From the NCBI GenBank assembly GCA_037441385.1, contig JBBISH010000152.1, forward strand, positions 1 through 13,480: a stretch of 13,480 nucleotides of DNA. Direction: 5' to 3'. A program made the translations under genes and the position numbers. The DNA is from Myxococcales bacterium (lineage in GTDB: Bacteria > Myxococcota_A > UBA9042). Shown one piece after another: positions 6,001-13,480 of the stretch (positions within the stretch are counted from its first letter, which is position 1; the number at the start of each line of letters is the position of its first letter). The notes beneath the pieces are model-generated. The model did not search any database, had not been told where the DNA came from, and worked only from the letters and a program-made list of their open reading frames with translations.

Positions 6001-6509
6001 CGGGCCAAGCCTGGTCCGAGGGCTTTGCCACCTGGCACAGCAGCCTGGTCCGCAACAGCCCGGTATACTTCGACAAACAGGACGGCACCTTCTTCTGGTT
6101 CAACATCGACAAAGCGGTGTACAGTGGCGGTGGCCCGCTGATCGAGCCGGATCCCCAAGGCGACCTGCTGCAAAAAATGGACGAAAATCGCGTCGCGGCC
6201 ATCGTTTGGGCGCTCACCGACACCACGACGGTGCCGTACGGCGCGGCAGTCAACAACGTGCTGTTCCAGGCGCTGACCGGCCCGCACATGAATACGGCGC
6301 CCTTCCCGCGCGGCTACAAGCGCCACGTGTGGACGCTGGACACGAGCAACTACCCCCCAGTATTCAAGGATGTGGTCGAGACCAGCGAGTCGGCGCCGAT
6401 GGTGGCCGATTTCTTGGACGCACTGGCATGCCTTGGGGTCAAGTCCACCAAGTTGCAGGCCGCGGTGCAGACCTACCCATTCCCAGTTGCCGCCCCCTTG
6501 TGCCCCTAG
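3075..6509 (+). CDS. Cys-rich lipoprotein with C-terminal gluzincin-like zinc metallopeptidase domain
   Basis: Purine-rich GGGGGGAA precedes the ATG. Hydrophobic stretch ending in lipobox-like LLFGGC. Long Asp/Ala-rich linker, CDDGxxCTxxDxC repeats and a CVPQCSGKACGPDGCGGVCGAC module. HEMGH at 5916..5930 with downstream WSEGFA (Glu codon 6018..6020). The start is uncertain; TTG at 3243 would give a normal-length signal peptide. Confidence 0.88.
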   Translation: MQRAQFEGPHLQAAAQDESAGAVHTVAPRALGLLPAATPAYGSRRRVRQRPQPQTSLRFGVLALGVAILLFGGCSDQPKATNTSTGAAVDSSVVDSDDAAGAEDASAIEVDAASTDIAVATDAEDSAPADSDSSTGTDATPQEDTPIDSQDDQAIAEEAGQDTADAVPDTAVEPDTAAGEVLDDADSQADVDAGPADAAAEDADAGDAGSADAADTVDAADTADAAAGDADGAGPGDDATSKDSGPDDPCSCGAACNGKACNDGSLCTTDDKCSAGSCAGTPVVCANSGPCTVGQCEIATGSCQIVSAKDGLACDDGKVCTTGDACSAGTCAGKAQGCDDGIDCTFDTCNGSGCVHLLSTKPCDDGDACTTGDLCAKGACSGLPILCVDGSPCTADGCDPAKGCVFVAMVGVACSDGSKCTTDDLCSGGKCVGGPPLNCDDGNPCTADTCSPTAGCNHEAAAGACKVDASVGTCVAGACCVPQCSGKACGPDGCGGVCGACAAGQTCQPDGTCLVDGCAGISYQGCCDAGVIKWCEGGLAKSLTCANAAPACGWDAANQFYNCVKVASVDPSGLNAYGCPGATCKAAAFTGCCAGHVCEYDSCGKKGAQVQFCAFGCDAATQKCYADPCQGVPASGVCAVDGASYSYCAAGSDGSSAQIHTEACKPYETCKEVGGITSCALKAGACEPGTAQCTGADEYSVCDDKGVPTKYACPGCKTHYLGTSCQKAIETTVYTATFVYDYKVPAGDLSDWSASVASAPLAFAAVYSMHKDASGTTLSLLDSTYTDEQGKFSILVAKNPAKEDFVAVMAARANGSQQIVLGVGNADVPAGENQVSNPVPADTSHLWSWSVPSSNWGTSDSWSIGIANGSGAARIFSIMNEVYGKSQQITGKAGKSVVAWLHYGSTWTCGACFGPWNAQVNNTVFDSQLWFGASDADEAYWSDAVTAHEMGHWAMASYGTSPNEGGTHMLGVPTFSGQAWSEGFATWHSSLVRNSPVYFDKQDGTFFWFNIDKAVYSGGGPLIEPDPQGDLLQKMDENRVAAIVWALTDTTTVPYGAAVNNVLFQALTGPHMNTAPFPRGYKRHVWTLDTSNYPPVFKDVVETSESAPMVADFLDALACLGVKSTKLQAAVQTYPFPVAAPLCP

Positions 6510-6535
6510 CCGGCCGTCCGGGCCGAGGAGGAACC

Positions 6536-7036
6536 ATGTCGAAAGTATTGGTGATTCTAGCCGTCGTCGTCACTGGGTGGGCAAGTTGGCTGGCGACGGC
6601 CCCCGAGGCTGCGGCCACCCCTGCCAAAAGCCCGCTCAAGGTCGCCCTGACGGGCCCAGAGAAGGTGGCGGTGGGCGAGACCATCGCGGTCGTGCTGACC
6701 ATCGAGCGAATGGCGTTCCAGAACTTGGAGGTTCAATGGCAGGTCGCGCTGCCGGCGGGCGCGCGCGCGGTACCGGGCGAGCCGCAAGCTGGGGTGTTGC
6801 CGGCGGGTGCAAGGCCCAACCTGGTGCAGACTCTGCACTTGATGGTGGATGAGCTGCCCAAAGACGATCTGGTGGTCACGGTGCGGATGGCCGGCAATGG
6901 CATGGGGCTGCAGAGCAAGGCGACCTATCGCTTTGGCCGGACAGCACCTGTGGGGCCGCGACCGAGCCCGGTACCGGTGCCTGGGAAGGTGAACGGCAAG
7001 AAGATTGGTGCCACGATTCCGCTGCCGGCGCGCTAG
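6536..7036 (+). CDS. Small secreted protein (166 aa), probable Ig-like beta-sandwich
   Basis: Strong RBS GAGGAGG before ATG 6536, 26 nt after the peptidase stop. N-terminus MSKVLVILAVVVTGWASWLATAPEAAA looks like a signal peptide. Alternating hydrophobic beta-strand pattern (LKVALTGP, IAVVLTIE, VQWQVALP, LVVTVRM). Pro/Lys-rich tail. Confidence 0.85.
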   Translation: MSKVLVILAVVVTGWASWLATAPEAAATPAKSPLKVALTGPEKVAVGETIAVVLTIERMAFQNLEVQWQVALPAGARAVPGEPQAGVLPAGARPNLVQTLHLMVDELPKDDLVVTVRMAGNGMGLQSKATYRFGRTAPVGPRPSPVPVPGKVNGKKIGATIPLPAR

Positions 7037-7093
7037 CGCCACCAAAGGCGGGCGCGTCCGACGTGGTCGACGGCGCGCTCTGGGATGCGAACA

Positions 7094-7136
7094 CCGGTTC
7101 GGACCCGAAGAATCGCCGGAGTTTTCGAGCCGACTC
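7094..7136 (+). repeat. Intergenic element, copy B
   Basis: 38/43 identical to 2996..3038, same orientation. TTCGG-AC-CCGAA at 7098..7109. Lies between convergent stop codons (7036 and 7181). Confidence 0.8.
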
Positions 7137-7149
7137 AAGCGGATTCCGT

Positions 7150-7173
7150 ATTACTGACCGAATGTTCAGTAAT
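7150..7173. promoter_or_regulatory. Inverted repeat ATTACTGA-N8-TCAGTAAT (operator-like; weak hairpin alternative)
   Basis: Perfect 8-bp arms at 7150..7157 and 7166..7173, AT-rich in a GC-rich context. Function is inferred only. Confidence 0.45.
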
Positions 7174-7180
7174 TGGTCGT

Positions 7181-8449
7181 CTAACTCGCTGCCCGGGCGG
7201 TTGCGTCCTTGGCCAGGCGGTAACCCTTGCCGTGAACGCTCTCGATGGTGTCGCGCGGTATTTCGGCGTCGGCCAAGTCGTCGCGCAAACGCTGGAGCAG
7301 CGCTTGCAGGCGGATGTGCGCCGACTGCCCCTGGTAGCCCAGAGCCGCCGCCAGGTCGGCGCGACTCGCTACGCCGGGGTGGGCCGCCGCCAGGGCCAGG
7401 ATCAATTTGGCGCGATCGCCTTCTAGGAAGATGGACTTGCCGCCAGTCGGGGAGCCCACTGCGAGTTCCGCGGCAGCCACGCGCCGCTGGGCCAGGACCT
7501 GCTCTGCGTCCGCACACTTGCGCAAGTAGCGGCCGGGCTCGCCGTCCAACATGCGGGGCTGACCGGCCTCGCTCCAGTCGCTCCAAGCCAAGCCGCTGCG
7601 CAGCAATTCCAGCTCCGCCTGCGGCGCCAGGTCCGCGCCGGCCGTTTTTCCTGGCTGCCAATTCGGCGGCAGCTGCGCCAGGGTCCCAGACTTGCGAAGA
7701 TCGCGAACAGCGCGTTCCACTGCCGGCATCCCGACTTGCGCGAGGTAGCGGGACAGCAGTTGCGCCTGCTCGGCCAGAGCATCGGGAGCGTCCTTGCGCA
7801 CGGGCGAGGTGACGGCCGTGGCCAACTGGCCGACCACGCTGGGATGGCCGCCAGCGGCGCTCAACATCGCAGTGCCCCAGGAAGGCAAGTGCTGCAACCC
7901 CCGATCGGAACTCAAGGCGTCTCGGTAGCTGGCAAGGTCGTCGGCGATGCGAAGGTGGACGCTGGGGATCTGCGCAACGGGGACCAGCAACTCGTTGCGG
8001 CAGCGCAGAGCCAACGCCGAGCTGTCGTCCAGCCGCCACCGACTGCACAGGTCATTCAGCGAGATCGTGGCGGTCATCGCCACCCAGTGCCCCCCATCCG
8101 CCGTCTCGGCAAACAGCTTGTTGATGCTGGAACTGGCCTGCCTGCCGTCCATATGATCCACGTCGTCGATCAGGATGCACGAGGGCTCGGCGGGCATTGG
8201 CACGCCGGCGGGACTCCGGCGACCGCTGGCACGGAAGACCGGCCGCCCCTGTTTCGCCAGCTCGCGCTCAAGCCAGTACAACAGGCTGGATTTTCCGATG
8301 CCGCGTCCGCCAAATGCGAGCAGGCGCAACCCATCGCCAGCCGAGACCCGGGCCAGTTCGGCCTCGACAAAATCCGGAAAAGCGCAATAGGGCGGCTGCA
8401 GGCTCGGCCGCTGCTCCTGCTTGCCTGGCGACGATTCACCCGCACTCAT
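7181..8449 (-). CDS. STAND-like P-loop ATPase with C-terminal OmpR/PhoB-type winged-helix DNA-binding domain
   Basis: RBS GGAGG 5 nt before the ATG. Walker A GGRGIGKS (aa 47-54), Walker B ILIDDVD, STAND-type GxP motif AAGGHP. C-terminal ~85 aa (7438..7184) SRADLAAALG...LQALLQRLRDDL...IESVHGKGYRL matches the Trans_reg_C pattern. No receiver domain seen. Confidence 0.85.
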   Translation of the reverse strand: MSAGESSPGKQEQRPSLQPPYCAFPDFVEAELARVSAGDGLRLLAFGGRGIGKSSLLYWLERELAKQGRPVFRASGRRSPAGVPMPAEPSCILIDDVDHMDGRQASSSINKLFAETADGGHWVAMTATISLNDLCSRWRLDDSSALALRCRNELLVPVAQIPSVHLRIADDLASYRDALSSDRGLQHLPSWGTAMLSAAGGHPSVVGQLATAVTSPVRKDAPDALAEQAQLLSRYLAQVGMPAVERAVRDLRKSGTLAQLPPNWQPGKTAGADLAPQAELELLRSGLAWSDWSEAGQPRMLDGEPGRYLRKCADAEQVLAQRRVAAAELAVGSPTGGKSIFLEGDRAKLILALAAAHPGVASRADLAAALGYQGQSAHIRLQALLQRLRDDLADAEIPRDTIESVHGKGYRLAKDATARAAS

Positions 8450-8464
8450 CTTTGCCTCCGTGCG

Positions 8465-11400
8465 TCAAAGGTGACGCGTATAGGCACGAACATAGGCCTG
8501 ACAAAGCTCGCTGGATAGGGCGTAGGTCAGCTGCTCGCTTTGGGGAAGGATTTGCCTGGCAATCAGGCCGGCCTGCCGCAGCGTTTGCAGCGTGAAGTCC
8601 AAGTCCCCCTGCGCAGTCCCCGGCTTGTCCCCGGCCACGGCGTTGATCAACTGCCCGTCGGGCAGCGGCCCGTGCTCGGCCAGACTGAGCAACACGTCGC
8701 GCGCGATCGGAAGCAAAGGCGCCGGAACCTCGTTGCGCCTGAGCAGGAAGGCCGCCTCGTCTTGCAGAACGTGTCGGAGGGCCGGTCCCACGTCGTCGTC
8801 GGTGTAGCGCAAGCTTGGACCGTTGCGTGCAGACGCGATGCGCCACAGCTTGTCGGCCAGCAGTCCGGTCCAATAGGGGTCGCCGCCGGTCACCTCGAAG
8901 ACGCGCGTCGCCACTGTACGCGGAACGTCCAGGTCCGACCGTGACCAACCCAGCTTGGCGGCGCGCAGCAGCGCCGTGGTTTCGGGCTGCAAGAAGGGCT
9001 GCATCTCGACCTGCCTGGCATCGTTGCGCAACGCCTTCCTCAATGGCTCCGACTTCAGCGACTCGGCCGCAGCCGACGGTCCGACCAGGACCAACGTGCA
9101 GCTGGACATGGCCCGACAGGTGGCGATGAACTGCAGAAATCCTTTTGTTTCCGCCGGATCCGATGCACAGGCCTTGGCAAGACGCACAGCCTCGTCCAGT
9201 ACGATCAGGACGCGCCGGCCCCGCAGGTGCTTTAGCCAGGCCTCGACCTTGTCCGCTTGGGGTGGCTTCAGGTCGGGCAGTCGCTCGGCAAATGCCGCCA
9301 CGAGGCGTGGTTCGCACTGCGACCAGCTCGCATCCAGGCATTCCAGGTAGACTCCGCGCGCCTCGGGCGCGTACTTCGCCTCGAATGCGGTGTGGAAGCG
9401 ATGAGCGAGCGAGGTCTTGCCAAACTTCAGGGCGCCCTTGAGAAAGACGAGCGAGCCCAGACCCGTCGCGTCCGGCGTGGCCAGCGCGGCCAAGCCAAAC
9501 AACTCGCCAAGCTCGTTTTCGCGGCCGTAGAAGCGCTCGTCGCGGCGCACCGGCTCGTTCACCACGTAGGGATTCTCTAGGCTTAATCCCCGGAGCGGGT
9601 TGTTGCTGCGCGGCGGTAGATCGCGCTCCAAGTCGCGGTCGCGTTCCAGGGGCCCAAGCGCGCGCCAGACGAAGTCCAAGGCCCCGATTTTGGCCACAAC
9701 ACGGTCGATCAACCGGGTGTCGTTGCAGTCCAGTAGCAGGCGGATCACGCCCACGCGCGGATTCAGGCGCCGCGCCGACACGTCGATGATGTCGATCTGG
9801 GCCTGGCGAAAGTGCCCCAGGATCTCGAACAGCGCGCCCACCCGGTTCGAGGTTTCCATGACCACATACTGGCTCACCGCGGCGCGCTCGACCGTTTCGA
9901 TCTTGCAGGCGTCTTTGGCGCAATGCGGCGGCCGGTGTTCAGCCCAGCGGTGCAGGACAAGCTCGCCGTCTTCTAGCGTGTAGCCGATGGGGTCAGACGC
10001 TCGCGGCCGGCACAGCCTGCAGACGCGGCGCCTTGTGTACTTGTCGCGCAGTTCTTCCGGCATGATCAGGTCGCGAACCAGCACCCGGCTGCGGCCGATC
10101 AGCTCCAGGATTCGTTCTGCATTGGCTTTGGTGGCACCGATGGCCCCAAGATCGACGCCGTGGGCCGACGCTCCCGACTGCACCGCCAGCCAAATCCCAA
10201 TGCGGTGCAGCCAAAGGCGCGAAGGAACCGCTCCCAGCAACGGCAATCGGCCGCTAGCGGAGTCCCGCACGGCCTGCCGCAACGCCAAGTCGACCATGTC
10301 GTCGATTTGGTCCAGGCGGGGCGGAAAATCCTCGGTGCCCTGCAACTGCTGGTGCACCCAGCACCGCCCGGCCTCGATGCGAAGCGGCTGCAGGGCCTGA
10401 CGGGCGGCTTCGCGCATGCGCCTGACTACGGTGTCGCCCACCTTGCTCTCCCAGCCGGCGGGCAAAACGTTGAACTCCGAGTACTCTGTCGCCTCGTGCC
10501 GAAGGATCTGCACCACGTCGCCGGACTGAAGGGGGTCCAGCGGGCCGAGCAACAACGATTGGCCGGCGCGCACAACCGTCGCCCCGCGCACAAAGCACGC
10601 GAGCTGTTCGTGGACGTCGAGCGCGAACTCCAGGACACAAGCCCCAGCGCGCAGCCGGTGCTCCTTGCGTGTCGGCGTGAGGACGCGCAAGGCCGTCGAT
10701 GACGCAATTGGCCGCAATTCATCCGTAATTTCGTCAAGCGACACGGGTGCAGCCGGGGTGGACGAATCTCGGACGACCAGGCGAAGCGGAATCTCAAGGC
10801 CACCGACATCGACCGCGGTGTGCACGGCTCGGTACCCCGTTCGGCCTGGCGCTGCGAAGTGACGGAAGCCATCGCGCTTGGGCTCATGCCGTTCGTGCAG
10901 TTGACCAAGTGCGGCATAGGCGTCGGCAAATTGCGCCACAGTTGCCGTAACAAAGCCGGATCCACGCAGAGTTCGACTCCACACAGCCGGCGGCAACGGG
11001 TCCAGCGCCGCGTGGATCGATGCCAAGTGCCGCCACTGCCAGGTCCATTCCAGGCTGCTGCTCAGCGCACTCCGGACGCGGGCCACGCCGTCGGCCACGG
11101 CGCCACCTTCGGCCACCAGCGCACGCATGTATCTGGACAGTTCTGTGCCGCGCGTTTGCGGGTTTTCGGCATGGCGCTTGGGCTGATCCACAAGCAAATA
11201 GCAGTCTTCTAGGTCGTTGCGCTCTTGCCACATGCCGAGCCGCCGCGCGATCGCGGCCGCGATGGGCACCATCCGGAGTTGCGGCGCCGCCTCGGTTGCG
11301 GGAACCGTTGCCCGCGGCTCAGGCACGGCGTTCTGCGGGTCCGACCGGGTCGCCGCCAGCCAGCTGCGCCGCTCACCCAGGGGATCGATGCGCCACAACT

Positions 11401-11749
11401 GTTCAAGAACAAACAGGGGCACCAGCATCGGGTGCGGCGCCAAGTCAAAGACGACGCGCGTGGCCTTTTGACTGTCGCTCGGTCCCAGTTGGCCCAGACC
11501 GGCCCGCAAGCGGACGTAGTCGGTCTGCAACTTCATCAAACTGGGCTCGTAGTGCCGAAGTTGACTGGCGAGCCACGCGGCCGGCTCGGGGCCGACTGCA
11601 ACGAGCAAGCTGGCCGCAGTCATGTGCTCCGAGCCAAAACGCGCATGCACCTCGCGAGCCAGCCCGACGAACGGGGCAAGGTCCGGGTTCTCCATCGCAA
11701 GGCGGATACACAGCATATCCGTTTGATGTTGCTGCATGAAGTCGACCAC
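8465..11749 (-). CDS. Degenerate long RelA/SpoT homolog (pseudo-HD, pseudo-SYNTH, TGS, ZFD, ACT) fused to STAND-type ATPase with C-terminal winged helix
   Basis: RSH landmarks in canonical order: IARRLGMWQERNDLED, ADAYAALGQLH, GYRAVHT, TGS (VLTP...LRAGACVLEFALDVH...LQSGDVVQIL, aa ~354-416), ZFD (CRLCRP..DPIGY..LVLHR, aa ~575-615), ACT (SNRVGALFEI...IDIIDV, aa ~627-697). Then NPYVV..FYGRENEL, Walker A GALKFGKT (9436..9413), Walker B VLIVLDE and TGGDPYW. ATG at 11737, preceded by GAGGTG, is an alternative start. Confidence 0.88.
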   Translation of the reverse strand: MVDFMQQHQTDMLCIRLAMENPDLAPFVGLAREVHARFGSEHMTAASLLVAVGPEPAAWLASQLRHYEPSLMKLQTDYVRLRAGLGQLGPSDSQKATRVVFDLAPHPMLVPLFVLEQLWRIDPLGERRSWLAATRSDPQNAVPEPRATVPATEAAPQLRMVPIAAAIARRLGMWQERNDLEDCYLLVDQPKRHAENPQTRGTELSRYMRALVAEGGAVADGVARVRSALSSSLEWTWQWRHLASIHAALDPLPPAVWSRTLRGSGFVTATVAQFADAYAALGQLHERHEPKRDGFRHFAAPGRTGYRAVHTAVDVGGLEIPLRLVVRDSSTPAAPVSLDEITDELRPIASSTALRVLTPTRKEHRLRAGACVLEFALDVHEQLACFVRGATVVRAGQSLLLGPLDPLQSGDVVQILRHEATEYSEFNVLPAGWESKVGDTVVRRMREAARQALQPLRIEAGRCWVHQQLQGTEDFPPRLDQIDDMVDLALRQAVRDSASGRLPLLGAVPSRLWLHRIGIWLAVQSGASAHGVDLGAIGATKANAERILELIGRSRVLVRDLIMPEELRDKYTRRRVCRLCRPRASDPIGYTLEDGELVLHRWAEHRPPHCAKDACKIETVERAAVSQYVVMETSNRVGALFEILGHFRQAQIDIIDVSARRLNPRVGVIRLLLDCNDTRLIDRVVAKIGALDFVWRALGPLERDRDLERDLPPRSNNPLRGLSLENPYVVNEPVRRDERFYGRENELGELFGLAALATPDATGLGSLVFLKGALKFGKTSLAHRFHTAFEAKYAPEARGVYLECLDASWSQCEPRLVAAFAERLPDLKPPQADKVEAWLKHLRGRRVLIVLDEAVRLAKACASDPAETKGFLQFIATCRAMSSCTLVLVGPSAAAESLKSEPLRKALRNDARQVEMQPFLQPETTALLRAAKLGWSRSDLDVPRTVATRVFEVTGGDPYWTGLLADKLWRIASARNGPSLRYTDDDVGPALRHVLQDEAAFLLRRNEVPAPLLPIARDVLLSLAEHGPLPDGQLINAVAGDKPGTAQGDLDFTLQTLRQAGLIARQILPQSEQLTYALSSELCQAYVRAYTRHL

Positions 11750-11846
11750 CTCGCGCGCGCCACTGCGGCTTGTGGCACCGTTGTAGTGTTCTCAACGACG
11801 GCGACCGCGTCAAGTTTGCAAAAAGTTTTTCACACTCAAATTGGAG

Positions 11847-11875
11847 TTGACATAAGTTGTATTCGGTTATATAGC
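11847..11875 (+). promoter_or_regulatory. Candidate sigma70-type promoter for the M23 gene
   Basis: Perfect TTGACA (11847..11852), 17-nt spacer, TATAGC (11870..11875). Lies in the most AT-rich patch of the window, 86 nt upstream of ATG 11962. Confidence 0.55.
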
Positions 11876-11961
11876 GTGGGTGCGGCCAGTACTTGCGGGC
11901 CGCGAGAGTGCCAGAGGCGCAAACGGCCGCGCGCCAAGGGGGCGCGGTCACCGGAGGTCCC

Positions 11962-13480
11962 ATGTTGCCCAATCGAAACGCTCGAAAACTGTGGTTCCAT
12001 AACGAAATCGCCTGGATCTTGCTGAGCACTCTGCTCCAGCTGGCCTGCACGGCGGCCAAGGACGGCGACGGGCCCGCGGCGCCCGAGCTGGCCGGCAGCG
12101 GGCAAATCGCGGGGGCTCTAAGTCAGCCGCTGCAGGCGCCGTTCGCGCCGGCCGCGGGGCCGCTGACGCCGTCGCAGTGCTTCAACGGGACGCTGACCCA
12201 CAACAGCGCGGCCCTGCAGTACGGGATCGACTACATCATGCCGATCGGCACGGATGTGCTCGCGGTTGGCCCGGGCAAGGTCGCCTTCACCAACGACACG
12301 TGCGCCAACAACCAGTCGGCCTGTGTAAAGGGTGTGGCCAACGCGACCTGCGACTGCTTCCACGGCATCGGCAACGTGGTGGTGGTCGAGCACGGGCCCG
12401 GCGACTACTCGCTGTACGCCCATCTGAACAAGGGGAGCCTGCTCGTCGCGGTGGGGCAGCAGGTGTGCACGGGCCAGGTGTTGGCCAAGTCGGGCTGGTC
12501 GGGCTGGGGCACCGGGGCGCATCTGCACTTCCAGATGCAGTCCACGGCCGGCGGCGCGACGACCTTGGCCGATGGCTACGTCAGCAAATCCTTTGACGGT
12601 TGGTATCAGCCCAGCGGCGGCCTCCAGAATCCCTGCGGCGCCCTCACATCCTACAACAATTCAACCACCTCGTGCGCCTCGGCGGTTGCGCTGCCCATCA
12701 ACCAAGTCACCAACGGCGCCGTGGCCAAGGGCGAGTGGGCCAAGTACTCGTTCAACAAGTTGGCGGGAAAGGCGTATTCGGTGCAGCTGCATCCCCTGGG
12801 CGGCGATCCGGATCTGTACGGCCACTTCGACCCGGCGGTCAGCGCCAGCAATTTTCAGCACAGTTCCGTCAACGGCGCCGGCAGCGACGACGTGATCAAG
12901 TTCAGCGCGTCTGCCGATGGGGTCTACTACATCGCGGTGCTGGGGTACTCGGCCGCAACCTACACGCTCAAGGTCGTTGAATCGGCCGGCGACGACCATG
13001 GCAACACGGCGGCTACGGCGACGCCAGTGGCACTGGGGGCGACAACCAGCGGTTCGATCGAGGTCGCGGGCGACGTCGATTTCTTCTCCTTCAAGACGGT
13101 TTCCGCCGGCTCGATCGCGGTGTCGACCTCGGGGACCACCGACACCTACTGCTACCTGATCGACGCCAATGGCAAAGTCCTGGCGGAAGACGACGACAGC
13201 GGCCCGGGTACCAACTGCCTGGCGGCAATGCCCTTGGTGCCGGCGGCCACCTATTTCGCCAAAGTACGCCACTATTCAAGCGGCTCTGGCCCGTACGCGG
13301 TGCAGGCGACGGCGACGGGTTCCGCTCCGCCCAGCTACAGCTGTCCCGGCAACTGCTCGGGCCATGGCACCTGCAACACCGCCAACGGCCTCTGCACCTG
13401 CAGCGGCGGCTACAGCGGCAGCAACTGTGCCACGCCGCCCAGCTACAGCTGTCCCGGCAACTGCTCGGGCCATGGCACCT
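11962..13480 (+). CDS. M23-family metallopeptidase lipoprotein with two PPC-like domains and EGF-like repeats, 3'-partial
   Basis: Translated by hand in frame 1; no stop to the window end, so it is absent from the ORF track. GGAGG at 11953..11957, then MLPNRNARKLWFHNEIAWILLSTLLQLAC (lipobox-like). M23 motifs THNSAALQYGID, GTDVLAVGPGKV, GNVVVVEH, YAHL and GAHLHF. PPC-like GGDPDLY...GVYYIAVLGY and DDHGNT...GDVDFF...EDDDSG. C-terminal CPGNCSGHGTC...CTCSGGYSGSNC. Confidence 0.9.
   Translation, partial: MLPNRNARKLWFHNEIAWILLSTLLQLACTAAKDGDGPAAPELAGSGQIAGALSQPLQAPFAPAAGPLTPSQCFNGTLTHNSAALQYGIDYIMPIGTDVLAVGPGKVAFTNDTCANNQSACVKGVANATCDCFHGIGNVVVVEHGPGDYSLYAHLNKGSLLVAVGQQVCTGQVLAKSGWSGWGTGAHLHFQMQSTAGGATTLADGYVSKSFDGWYQPSGGLQNPCGALTSYNNSTTSCASAVALPINQVTNGAVAKGEWAKYSFNKLAGKAYSVQLHPLGGDPDLYGHFDPAVSASNFQHSSVNGAGSDDVIKFSASADGVYYIAVLGYSAATYTLKVVESAGDDHGNTAATATPVALGATTSGSIEVAGDVDFFSFKTVSAGSIAVSTSGTTDTYCYLIDANGKVLAEDDDSGPGTNCLAAMPLVPAATYFAKVRHYSSGSGPYAVQATATGSAPPSYSCPGNCSGHGTCNTANGLCTCSGGYSGSNCATPPSYSCPGNCSGHGT
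13327..13480 (+). repeat. Exact coding direct repeat, 108-bp period (EGF-like unit)
   Basis: The 46 nt at 13327..13372 are identical to 13435..13480 (PPSYSCPGNCSGHGT). The second copy is cut by the window end. Confidence 0.9.

Follow-up and report, generated by a model that had tools for sequence, protein, structure and literature searches.

The window analysed here, the whole 13,480-nucleotide contig JBBISH010000152.1 of a Myxococcales bacterium (assembly GCA_037441385.1), encodes on its minus strand (8465–11749) a protein of 1094 aa, P0001, in which a long RelA/SpoT homologue (RSH) predicted to be dead in both of its catalytic centres is fused to a predicted live ATPase. The gene directly downstream (7181–8449, minus strand) encodes a second ATPase, P0003 (422 aa), with a predicted DNA-binding winged helix, and the two genes appear to constitute a conserved operon. 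We tentatively propose, giving the idea somewhat less than an even chance, that the two proteins act as a sensor–switch–regulator pair which would report starvation or translation stress to promoters independently of (p)ppGpp. To the preliminary description of this DNA, which had been made from its letters alone, the analysis mainly adds the partner gene, which is conserved, and the combination, seen throughout the family, of a dead enzyme, a live ATPase and a conserved sensor half.

The reading frame of P0001 is uninterrupted on the minus strand from a GTG at 11749 to a TGA stop at 8467–8465. The preliminary description had quoted the same interval, naming no strand, and all the motif strings that it listed were found in the translation at the implied residue positions: AASLLVA (45–51), VLEQLWR (114–120), WQWRHLASIHAA (237–248), GSGFVT (263–268), GYRAVH (305–310), PLRLVV (321–326), NPY..FYGRE (726–744), GALKFGKT (772–779), VLIVLDE (847–853) and GGDP (955–958). 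A likelier start than the GTG is the ATG at 11737, four codons downstream, which has GGTGG 8 nt upstream and is the start of the database gene call for the same sequence (P0006, 1090 aa). Long spurious open reading frames (ORFs) are common in the window because its G+C content is 64–71%, and 73 ORFs of at least 80 aa were counted.

An exhaustive HMMER search with P0001 over 1.84 billion representative sequences returned 173 relatives at E ≤ 1e-3, 129 at E ≤ 1e-10 and 100 at E ≤ 1e-30, the last being clusters almost all 1070–1160 aa long and matched from end to end. The preliminary description had allowed for uncharacterised homologues in databases and was right to do so, at least 100 representative clusters being found at E < 1e-30. 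A word-indexed search with P0001 was insensitive and gave two relatives against the 173 of HMMER. In the ESM Atlas, three clusters (53, 87 and 63 members) combine TGS and RelA_SpoT with AAA_22 or nSTAND1 (score 0.95). The automatic JGI name of one relative, P0007, reads ‘(p)ppGpp synthase/HD superfamily hydrolase/...predicted ATPase ExeA’, which shows that annotation pipelines already see both the RSH and the ATPase halves. P0001 was aligned with the 94 matches of 1000–1200 aa among P0007–P0109 to give a family alignment of 95 sequences (A2), to which the residue counts below refer. It deviates at five of the 72 columns that are conserved at 85% or more, which is the family median, and is judged to be a typical family member.

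These results also bear on whether the fusion could be a chimeric assembly or a decaying pseudogene, an idea to which the short contig (13,480 bases) and the weak scores of P0001 against single-domain models might lend some colour. The preliminary description had named a misassembly near position 9600 as a finding that would undo its reading. Instead, the same fusion was found in about 100 cluster representatives (E < 1e-30) and at eight independent genome loci, one of them a complete 5.3-Mb chromosome; the ORF is unbroken, the deviations of P0001 stand at the family median and its AlphaFold2 model is confident across the RSH/ATPase junction. The gene is real and is neither a singleton nor an artefact, and we attach a negligible probability to the contrary.

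A Pfam scan of the 56 weaker matches revealed a second set of long RSH–ATPase fusions, here called clade B, which comprises P0139, P0141, P0143, P0144, P0146, P0147, P0150, P0155, P0156 and the fragment P0152. Their RSH signatures are far stronger (HD_4 65–97 bits in six of them, RelA_SpoT 44–58 bits, TGS 65–77 bits, and RelA_AH_RIS matched). In a tree of the RSH region (47 rows, LG+G4, SH-aLRT support only) the clade-B proteins form a basal grade, and the clade of the window protein sits on a long stem (0.88, support 100) as a derived group; with three canonical RSH rows, a single origin of the fusion is not provable from this tree. Other relatives differ in length or layout. Some 120–190 extra residues separate the RelA_SpoT and TGS matches in P0114, P0129 and P0131 (about 1265–1304 aa). 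P0122 (236 aa), which covers the ACT-to-ATPase junction, has a Fis-type HTH_8 match (E 1.5e-12) just after the start of its AAA_16 match, and may be a fragment or have a different output arrangement.

Residues 1–700 of P0001 had been read as following the full long-RSH order of HD, SYNTH, TGS, helical, zinc-finger (ZFD) and ACT domains, and this was borne out by Pfam, the family profile and structural modelling. With P0001 alone, Pfam TGS is above threshold (28 bits, cut-off 22.2) and RelA_SpoT (12.4 bits, cut-off 27) and ACT (15.1 bits, E 0.021) are below it, while TIGR00691 (spoT_relA) scores 29.4 bits, short of its cut-off of 499, with the stretch 273–314 at E 2.5e-7. The RelA_SpoT cut-off is passed by relatives, among them the protein of survey locus L006 (31.8 bits) and those of clade B. 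A phmmer search of P0001 against the PDB sequences matched E. coli RelA in three collinear stretches (E 7e-4), and the 95-sequence profile matched mycobacterial RelA (8fr8_I, E 3.7e-54) and E. coli RelA (5iqr_8, E 1.2e-52) over profile positions 27–342 (HD and SYNTH) and 358–698 (TGS to ACT). The AlphaFold2 model, built on alignment A2, has a mean predicted local distance difference test score (pLDDT) of 88.0 and a predicted template-modelling score of 0.66. Foldseek comparison of this model with the PDB gave as its top match RelA on the 70S ribosome (5iqr_8, E 9.4e-19, 747 columns), followed by 5kpv, full-length SpoT (7qpr, E 1.2e-15) and B. subtilis Rel (6yxa). Judged by sequence and model together, residues 1–700 are a genuine long RelA/SpoT homologue with collinear domain order.

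All the domains lie on the minus strand. The pseudo-hydrolase (HD-like, residues 1–160, 11270–11749) was placed by alignment to E. coli SpoT and RelA and by the profile match to solved Rel/RelA HD domains, and is all-helical in the model. Alignments, the profile match and the TIGR00691 stretch likewise place the pseudo-synthetase (SYNTH-like, residues 161–330, 10760–11269). The TGS domain (residues 353–420, 10490–10693) is assigned by its Pfam match and by H380, which aligns with H432 of E. coli RelA. It is followed by a helical, AH/RIS-like domain (residues 421–570, 10040–10489), supported by the collinear RelA profile match, by model helices at 439–553 and by RelA_AH_RIS matches in clade-B relatives. 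The ZFD (residues 571–620, 9890–10039) holds C577, C580, H600 and C610, and the ACT/RRM domain (residues 621–700, 9650–9889), with G638 and R670, combines the Pfam ACT match and a profile match to the RelA C-terminus with a modelled β-α-β-β-α-β order. A linker (residues 701–735, 9545–9649; LE..LPPR ... NPY) joins it to the ATPase; its P712 (90/95), R714 (85/95) and P727 (87/95) belong to a conserved pattern, LE..LPPR...PY..G....D..FYGR.

Both catalytic centres had been described as degenerate, and alignment of P0001 and the 95-sequence family with E. coli relA and spoT (from NC_000913) confirmed this for P0001 and family-wide. The hydrolase His-Asp dyad (SpoT H72 and D73) is replaced by V50 and A51, with His retained in 74 and Asp in two of the 95 sequences; the His equivalent to SpoT H48 is P26, and the ED pair has no alignable counterpart in P0001 or in the family. 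In RSH synthetases the GRxK motif, the Mg-binding Asp and the Glu and Gln of ExQIRT have catalytic roles. The first of these has become W237-Q-W239-R in P0001 and generally W-E-W-R/H in the family (Trp in 92/95 and 91/95, with Glu between them in 74/95). The Mg-binding Asp (RelA D275, SpoT D259) is G263 in P0001 and acidic in 6/95. ExQIRT is replaced by PLRLVV, its Glu column being P321 (acidic in 2/95) and its Gln column R323 (Arg in 71/95), and the helix that follows IRT in RelA and SpoT is deleted in the clade of the window protein. The Glu position depends on the alignment, pairwise comparison giving E319 and the profile alignments P321, as in the preliminary description; the conclusion of a dead synthetase is unchanged by this ambiguity. 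The Gln and the Mg-binding Asp are absent in either case. The GYxxxHT motif is retained (Y306, H310 and T311 in P0001; Tyr in 89, His in 81 and Thr in 88 of the 95). P0001 is thus predicted to be a pseudoenzyme twice over, neither its hydrolase nor its synthetase being live, and a (p)ppGpp output from the fusion protein seems implausible.

Clade B, read by eye on the alignment, differs in its hydrolase region. Several members keep the HD dyad (LLHD) and two, P0139 and P0156, keep KLADRLHN, and hydrolase-type metal binding may survive in the members with strong HD_4 matches (P0139, P0143, P0144, P0146, P0147 and P0156). The ED pair, GRxK, the Mg-binding Asp and ExQ are missing from all nine full-length clade-B proteins, so read, and the synthetase appears to be dead in every fusion that we examined.

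In textbook STAND proteins the effector usually precedes the NTPase, and sensing is done by the C-terminal part. The RSH half of P0001 occupies the effector position, and it might then still be an enzyme, of altered chemistry, that is regulated by the ATPase. Fungal NLRs provide a parallel, in that those described by Dyrka et al. 2014 (PMC4986451) carry RelA_SpoT as a presumed enzymatic effector, and the dyad and KLADRLHN of P0139 and P0156 are compatible with such an idea. In the clade of the window protein, however, the synthetase Mg-binding acidic residues and the HD Asp are nearly gone, the post-IRT helix is deleted and P0001 has lost both His residues of the HD site (P26, V50), while clade B shares the loss of GRxK, Asp and ExQ. 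We regard a surviving enzyme as very improbable.

The C-terminal third of P0001 begins with a P-loop NTPase core (residues 736–900, 9050–9544) that contains the FYGR helix (740–743), a Walker A motif GALKFGKTS (772–780, nucleotides 9410–9436) and a Walker B motif VLIVLDE (847–853, nucleotides 9191–9211). A helical domain (residues 901–1000, 8750–9049) carries the GxP motif T954-G-G956-D-P958-Y-W960, which hhalign aligns with TGGHP of the partner protein, and the chain ends in a winged-helix-like domain (residues 1001–1094, 8468–8749) that is modelled as helices and a β-hairpin (1063–1078) at pLDDT above 90. G777, K778 and S780 of Walker A and D852 and E853 of Walker B are each present in 95/95, and in the GxP motif, T-G-G-N/D-P-Y-W across the family, G956 is found in 95/95, P958 in 87/95 and W960 in 86/95. 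The NTPase is therefore predicted to be intact and live.

The STAND tripartite NOD is defined as an NTPase followed by a helical domain with GxP and then a winged helix. The preliminary description had called this part an intact STAND ATPase, a claim that stands as regards the invariant Walker residues, the GxP motif, the winged-helix end and a STAND/Orc1-Cdc6 fold; curated models support STAND membership only in part, no STAND cut-off of Pfam being passed by P0001. Its scores for AAA_16 (26.5 bits), NACHT (21.2 bits, cut-off 26.7) and AAA_22 are all below threshold and nSTAND1 is not matched, whereas four relatives pass the nSTAND1 cut-off of 27.1 (P0111 with 28.0 bits, P0143 with 45.8, P0144 with 33.2 and P0146 with 31.8). 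The best structural matches are the Walker-type ATPase 2qen of P. abyssi (TM score 0.67 on the target, root-mean-square deviation 5.4) and 2fna (TM 0.61), followed by the archaeal Orc1/Cdc6 proteins 2v1u, 2qby and 1fnn and then the plant NLR NODs 9ria_B and 6j5t_C. The matches span whole ATPase and winged-helix proteins, and 2qen and Orc1/Cdc6 outscore the plant NODs. Because P0001 passes no curated STAND model although relatives pass nSTAND1, we describe the C-terminal third as probably ‘STAND/Orc1-Cdc6-like’ rather than as a proven STAND member.

Only 15 nt separate the stop codon of the fusion gene from the ATG of the partner gene, and this gap contains a GGAGG ribosome-binding site (8455–8459, minus strand) 5 nt before the ATG. 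P0003 was recognised by Pfam and hhalign as an AAA+/STAND-like ATPase with an OmpR/PhoB-type winged helix. It has a Walker A motif GGRGIGKS (G47..G52-K53), a Walker B motif ILIDDVD (D95..D98) and GGHP at 200–203. Its C-terminal winged helix (about 338–412) scores 24.1 bits against Trans_reg_C (E 3.7e-5, cut-off 26.2), and the orthologues at survey loci L006, L010 and L012 score 30.0, 18.3 and 19.6, the first of these above the cut-off. The structural model of P0003 has a pLDDT of 67 overall, with about 80 in the ATPase core and about 90 in the winged helix (330–420), and its fold matches are generic AAA+ proteins. Its ESM Atlas neighbours are NTPase proteins with Trans_reg_C, 79–100% of which carry the latter domain, and a word-indexed search with the partner alignment found only the Gemmatimonas orthologue and generic AAA proteins. 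The partner gene is accordingly predicted to supply the DNA-binding output of the system.

The NTPase modules of the two proteins are themselves homologous. Their relation was visible only by profile–profile comparison, in which hhalign matched residues 22–223 of the partner to 766–989 of the fusion (97% probability, E 1.2e-10) across Walker A, Walker B and GxP; BLASTP of P0003 against P0001 found no similarity (best E 2.2).

A survey of loci, with one genome per species and a query made of a four-sequence alignment and two peptide patterns, gave 45 pattern matches, of which eight were confirmed as loci of fusion relatives. They form a small and possibly biased sample with none from clade B. 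By record title, two are from metagenome-assembled genomes (MAGs) of Proteobacteria and two from ‘uncultured Rickettsiales’ MAGs; the other four are from one MAG each of Myxococcota, Thermoanaerobaculia and Acidobacteriota and from the Gemmatimonas chromosome OZ257156. At all eight, as in the window, a partner homologue lies directly downstream of the fusion gene on the same strand. No further neighbour is common to the eight loci, the flanking genes being mostly housekeeping ones (LeuRS, PEP carboxylase, amine oxidase). On this evidence the fusion and its partner are a conserved two-gene operon. The two ‘uncultured Rickettsiales’ loci, L007 and L010, have a G+C content so high that the real genes are overlapped by antisense ORFs exceeding 1600 aa, and the label looks doubtful given this composition.

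The part of the RSH scaffold that has been kept is instructive. In RelA and Rel the half that runs from TGS through the helical domain and ZFD to ACT binds the ribosome, where it checks the CCA end of deacylated tRNA in the A site. TGS is the best conserved domain of the family, with 2.22 bits per column against 1.30–1.83 for the other domains and 0.94 and 1.61 for the linkers. C577, C580, H600 and C610 of the ZFD, which align with the Cys/Cys/His/Cys of E. coli RelA and SpoT, are each found in 92/95, and R670 of the ACT domain is invariant. In Arenz et al. 2016 (PMC5291266) the contact area for the CCA end of A-site tRNA is given as His432, Phe409-Pro411 and Val461-Ile463 of RelA. The position of P0001 H380, aligned with RelA H432, is His in 62/95; the FTP hairpin is retained in the family (Phe 59/95 or Tyr 24/95, Thr 58/95, Pro 71/95), as is the GDxV strand (Asp 90/95, Val 85/95). 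Three relatives of about 740–790 aa, P0117, P0121 and P0135, have a Met at the first TGS strand and run on through ACT into the ATPase; they are possible natural forms lacking the pseudo-catalytic half, which would, if they are real, be dispensable. This pattern suggests that the RSH sensing scaffold has been under purifying selection while both catalytic centres were discarded.

We propose that the TGS, helical, zinc-finger and ACT half would act as a sensor of ribosome or tRNA state, possibly with help from those residues of the pseudo-synthetase that survive on its guanine-nucleotide side. Once a signal was sensed, the fused NTPase would be free to assemble, in an ATP-dependent manner, with the partner ATPase, the two similar NTPase modules providing the contact, and the partner winged helix would then bind DNA and alter transcription without (p)ppGpp. 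The sensor reading draws indirect support from the high conservation of the tRNA- and ribosome-binding half and from the possible forms without the catalytic half, and the earlier suggestion that the RSH chassis serves as the input of an ATPase switch remains plausible. In its most explicit version, the dead RelA scaffold would dock on stalled ribosomes, read the uncharged CCA end of A-site tRNA and drive ATP-dependent assembly with a promoter-acting partner, and would thus constitute a protein-only wire from A site to transcription in several phyla of mostly uncultured bacteria; we consider it rather doubtful that all of these details are right.

Several observations count against this proposal. 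CCA-end inspection may not be universal, given that the H380 position is His in only 62/95, and P0001 has LTP where RelA has FTP. The short forms that lack the catalytic half may result from faulty gene calls or contigs. Nearly invariant residues of the pseudo-synthetase (W237, W239, G265, Y278 and H285) hint at a role for which the ribosome model has no need. The RSH part is N-terminal to the NTPase, the usual place of a STAND effector, and because of that rule polarity argues neither way on the RSH part as input. It is hard to picture a single complex with both a ribosome-bound sensor and a DNA-bound output. The partner ATPase core also matches classical AAA proteins (Cdc48/p97, E about 1e-11), and its model is of moderate quality (pLDDT 67). 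Fusion and partner identities correlate across loci (r 0.95, Mantel p about 0.004), but the correlation rests on one close pair, L009 and L010, and was discounted. Lastly, whatever goes beyond the anatomy, namely binding, ligand, ATPase activity and DNA target, is inferred.

The nearly invariant residues leave room for a small-molecule-gated transcription switch that would work without the ribosome. The pseudo-synthetase pocket, with a guanine nucleotide or (p)ppGpp, the ACT domain, with an amino acid, or both would bind a metabolite and thereby trigger ATP-dependent assembly with the partner. The acceptor-side GYxxxHT motif survives, and the catalytic and ATP-side residues have been replaced by the new and nearly invariant W-x-W-R/H; ACT domains bind ligands in many proteins, R670 is invariant, and STAND regulators such as MalT, which responds to maltotriose, work in this way. 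Such a switch leaves unexplained why the whole ribosome-binding set of TGS, helical domain and zinc finger is retained, with TGS as the best conserved domain, and it sits badly with possible short forms that have no pseudo-synthetase at all. We think it unlikely, and keep it alive because W-x-W-R/H, G265, Y278 and H285 are not explained by the ribosome model.

A conflict or anti-phage system was also considered, with the dead stringent factor as an integrated decoy or guard that would bait phage factors or toxins aimed at Rel/RelA or the ribosome, leading to STAND assembly and to execution or relay by the partner. Many bacterial STAND NTPases are reported to be phage sensors. The relatives P0111, P0143, P0144 and P0146 reach nSTAND1, a clade described from counter-invader systems by Kaur et al. 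2021 (PMC8195603), and Kaur et al. 2020 (PMC7159879) suggest that catalytically inactive enzyme domains could be decoys in conflict systems. Among the neighbours at the surveyed loci are a Uma2 nuclease-like gene and, at a different locus, a TraG P-loop gene. Otherwise the neighbours are mostly housekeeping and not conserved. PADLOC (PADLOC-DB 2.0, which includes Avs and bNACHT) assigned no family to four of the five proteins submitted (P0001, P0003 and two partner orthologues), and the fifth, the L006 partner, gave one weak, chance-level PtuA match (E 0.017). No recognisable toxic effector (nuclease, TIR, protease or pore) was seen in either gene, the sole output domain is the DNA-binding winged helix, and hypervariable sensor repeats were not seen. 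Because PADLOC gave nothing and no toxic effector was visible, we rate this explanation lower and think it unlikely.

The proposed sensor–switch–regulator pair may be compared with several known systems. Long RSHs (E. coli RelA and SpoT, and Rel of Firmicutes and Actinobacteria) have the same full HD-SYNTH-TGS-helical-ZFD-ACT order, and they share with the fusion the TGS residues that contact CCA and the Cys/His set of the ZFD; in RelA, too, the HD domain is a pseudo-hydrolase, with neither the HD dyad nor the ED pair present. The fusion differs in that its synthetase is also predicted to be dead, in some 390 extra C-terminal residues that form the NTPase switch, in its obligate neighbouring ATPase–winged-helix gene and, for the clade of the window protein, in the deleted post-IRT helix. 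MalT and the AfsR/SARP-NB-ARC-TPR proteins couple an ATP-dependent NTPase switch to a DNA-binding domain, which in AfsR is an OmpR-type winged helix. In those proteins a single chain carries the DNA-binding domain, the NTPase and a sensor made of repeats or a SUPR domain; the pair described here has its DNA-binding domain on a second, paralogous ATPase and a pseudo-RSH as putative sensor. The archaeal Walker-type ATPases of the ATPase_2 family (2qen, 2fna) and Orc1/Cdc6 share the layout of ATPase, lid and C-terminal winged helix with residues 736–1094, but have no RSH moiety and are 14–18% identical to the fusion; the title of entry 2qby indicates that Orc1/Cdc6 paralogues form heteromers. Antiviral STAND proteins (Avs, bNACHT) likewise fuse a bacterial STAND-like NTPase to a large recognition module, and the fusion differs from them in matching no PADLOC model, in having no nuclease, TIR or protease effector and in a context that is not defence-like.

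The closest precedents that we found in print are of two kinds. Fungal RELA_SPOT-NACHT-WD40 NLRs likewise have an RSH-derived domain N-terminal to a STAND NTPase in one polypeptide; they carry the synthetase domain alone, taken as an active effector, with C-terminal WD40, ANK or TPR sensor repeats (Dyrka et al. 2014, PMC4986451). By comparison, the fusion has a whole, dead long-RSH scaffold and no repeats, and is bacterial with a DNA-binding partner. The second kind is found in Kaur et al. 2020 (PMC7159879), where vWA components on rare occasions carry the RelA nucleotidyltransferase and TGS domains as effectors. Full-text literature searches found no account of a fusion between a long RSH and an ATPase, although one could appear in the supplementary tables of RSH subfamilies of Jimmy et al. 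2020 or in those of architectures of Kaur et al. 2020. Term look-up likewise found no such fusion in the RSH classification papers PMC3153485 and PMC7229694 or in the STAND and conflict-system papers PMC13581612, PMC7159879 and PMC8195603, a result limited to the terms used.

At the left end of the window, P0004 (1–2823, plus strand, open at the 5′ end) encodes a very large, Cys-rich and apparently secreted protein with nine Dicty_CTDC matches (E 1.7e-35) and cEGF. P0002 (3075–6509, plus strand, 1144 aa) is also very large, Cys-rich and apparently secreted, with an acidic low-complexity N-terminal part, Dicty_CTDC repeats and, in a C-terminal region that has no Pfam match, the HExxH zincin-like string HEMGH. 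No convincing gene lies in the roughly 670 bases (6510–7180) that separate the converging P0002 and partner genes, and the ORFs there have no Pfam match. One of them, at 6557–7138 on the minus strand, was rejected as a third operon gene, having no Pfam match and an Arg-rich, nonsense-like translation. Past the partner stop at 7181, a perfect 8-bp AT-rich hairpin (7147–7172, minus strand; ATTACTGA, an 8-nt loop and TCAGTAAT, with no T-run) may be the 3′ end signal of the operon; a consensus terminator scan did not report it. On the other side of the fusion gene, a divergently transcribed plus-strand gene (11893–13479) that runs past the window end encodes an M23 peptidase (E 5.7e-20) with two PPC domains and EGF-like repeats, and shares with the fusion gene a 143-nt, AT-richer intergenic region (11750–11892). 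A search of 11730–11900 for operator-like repeats gave two trivial palindromes only. No sigma-70-like promoter was found in 6400–12100, terminator-like sites were at shuffled expectation, and neither Rfam nor tRNA scanning gave a match in the window.

In the textbook view, long RSH enzymes couple the state of the ribosome to bacterial physiology through (p)ppGpp. That their scaffold has here been kept, catalysis discarded, and an invariant ATPase and a DNA-binding partner gained suggests that the scaffold has a signalling use of its own. Whichever explanation holds, the fusions make up a pseudoenzyme family of at least 100 divergent clusters for which literature searches found no describing paper. 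Were the decoy explanation true, they would give bacteria an equivalent, aimed at the stringent response, of the integrated decoys in plant NLRs. If instead the sensing of ribosome or tRNA state that we propose is true, the family would provide a natural experiment on the regulatory half of RelA uncoupled from catalysis, and would represent a new class of input for STAND/AAA+ switches.

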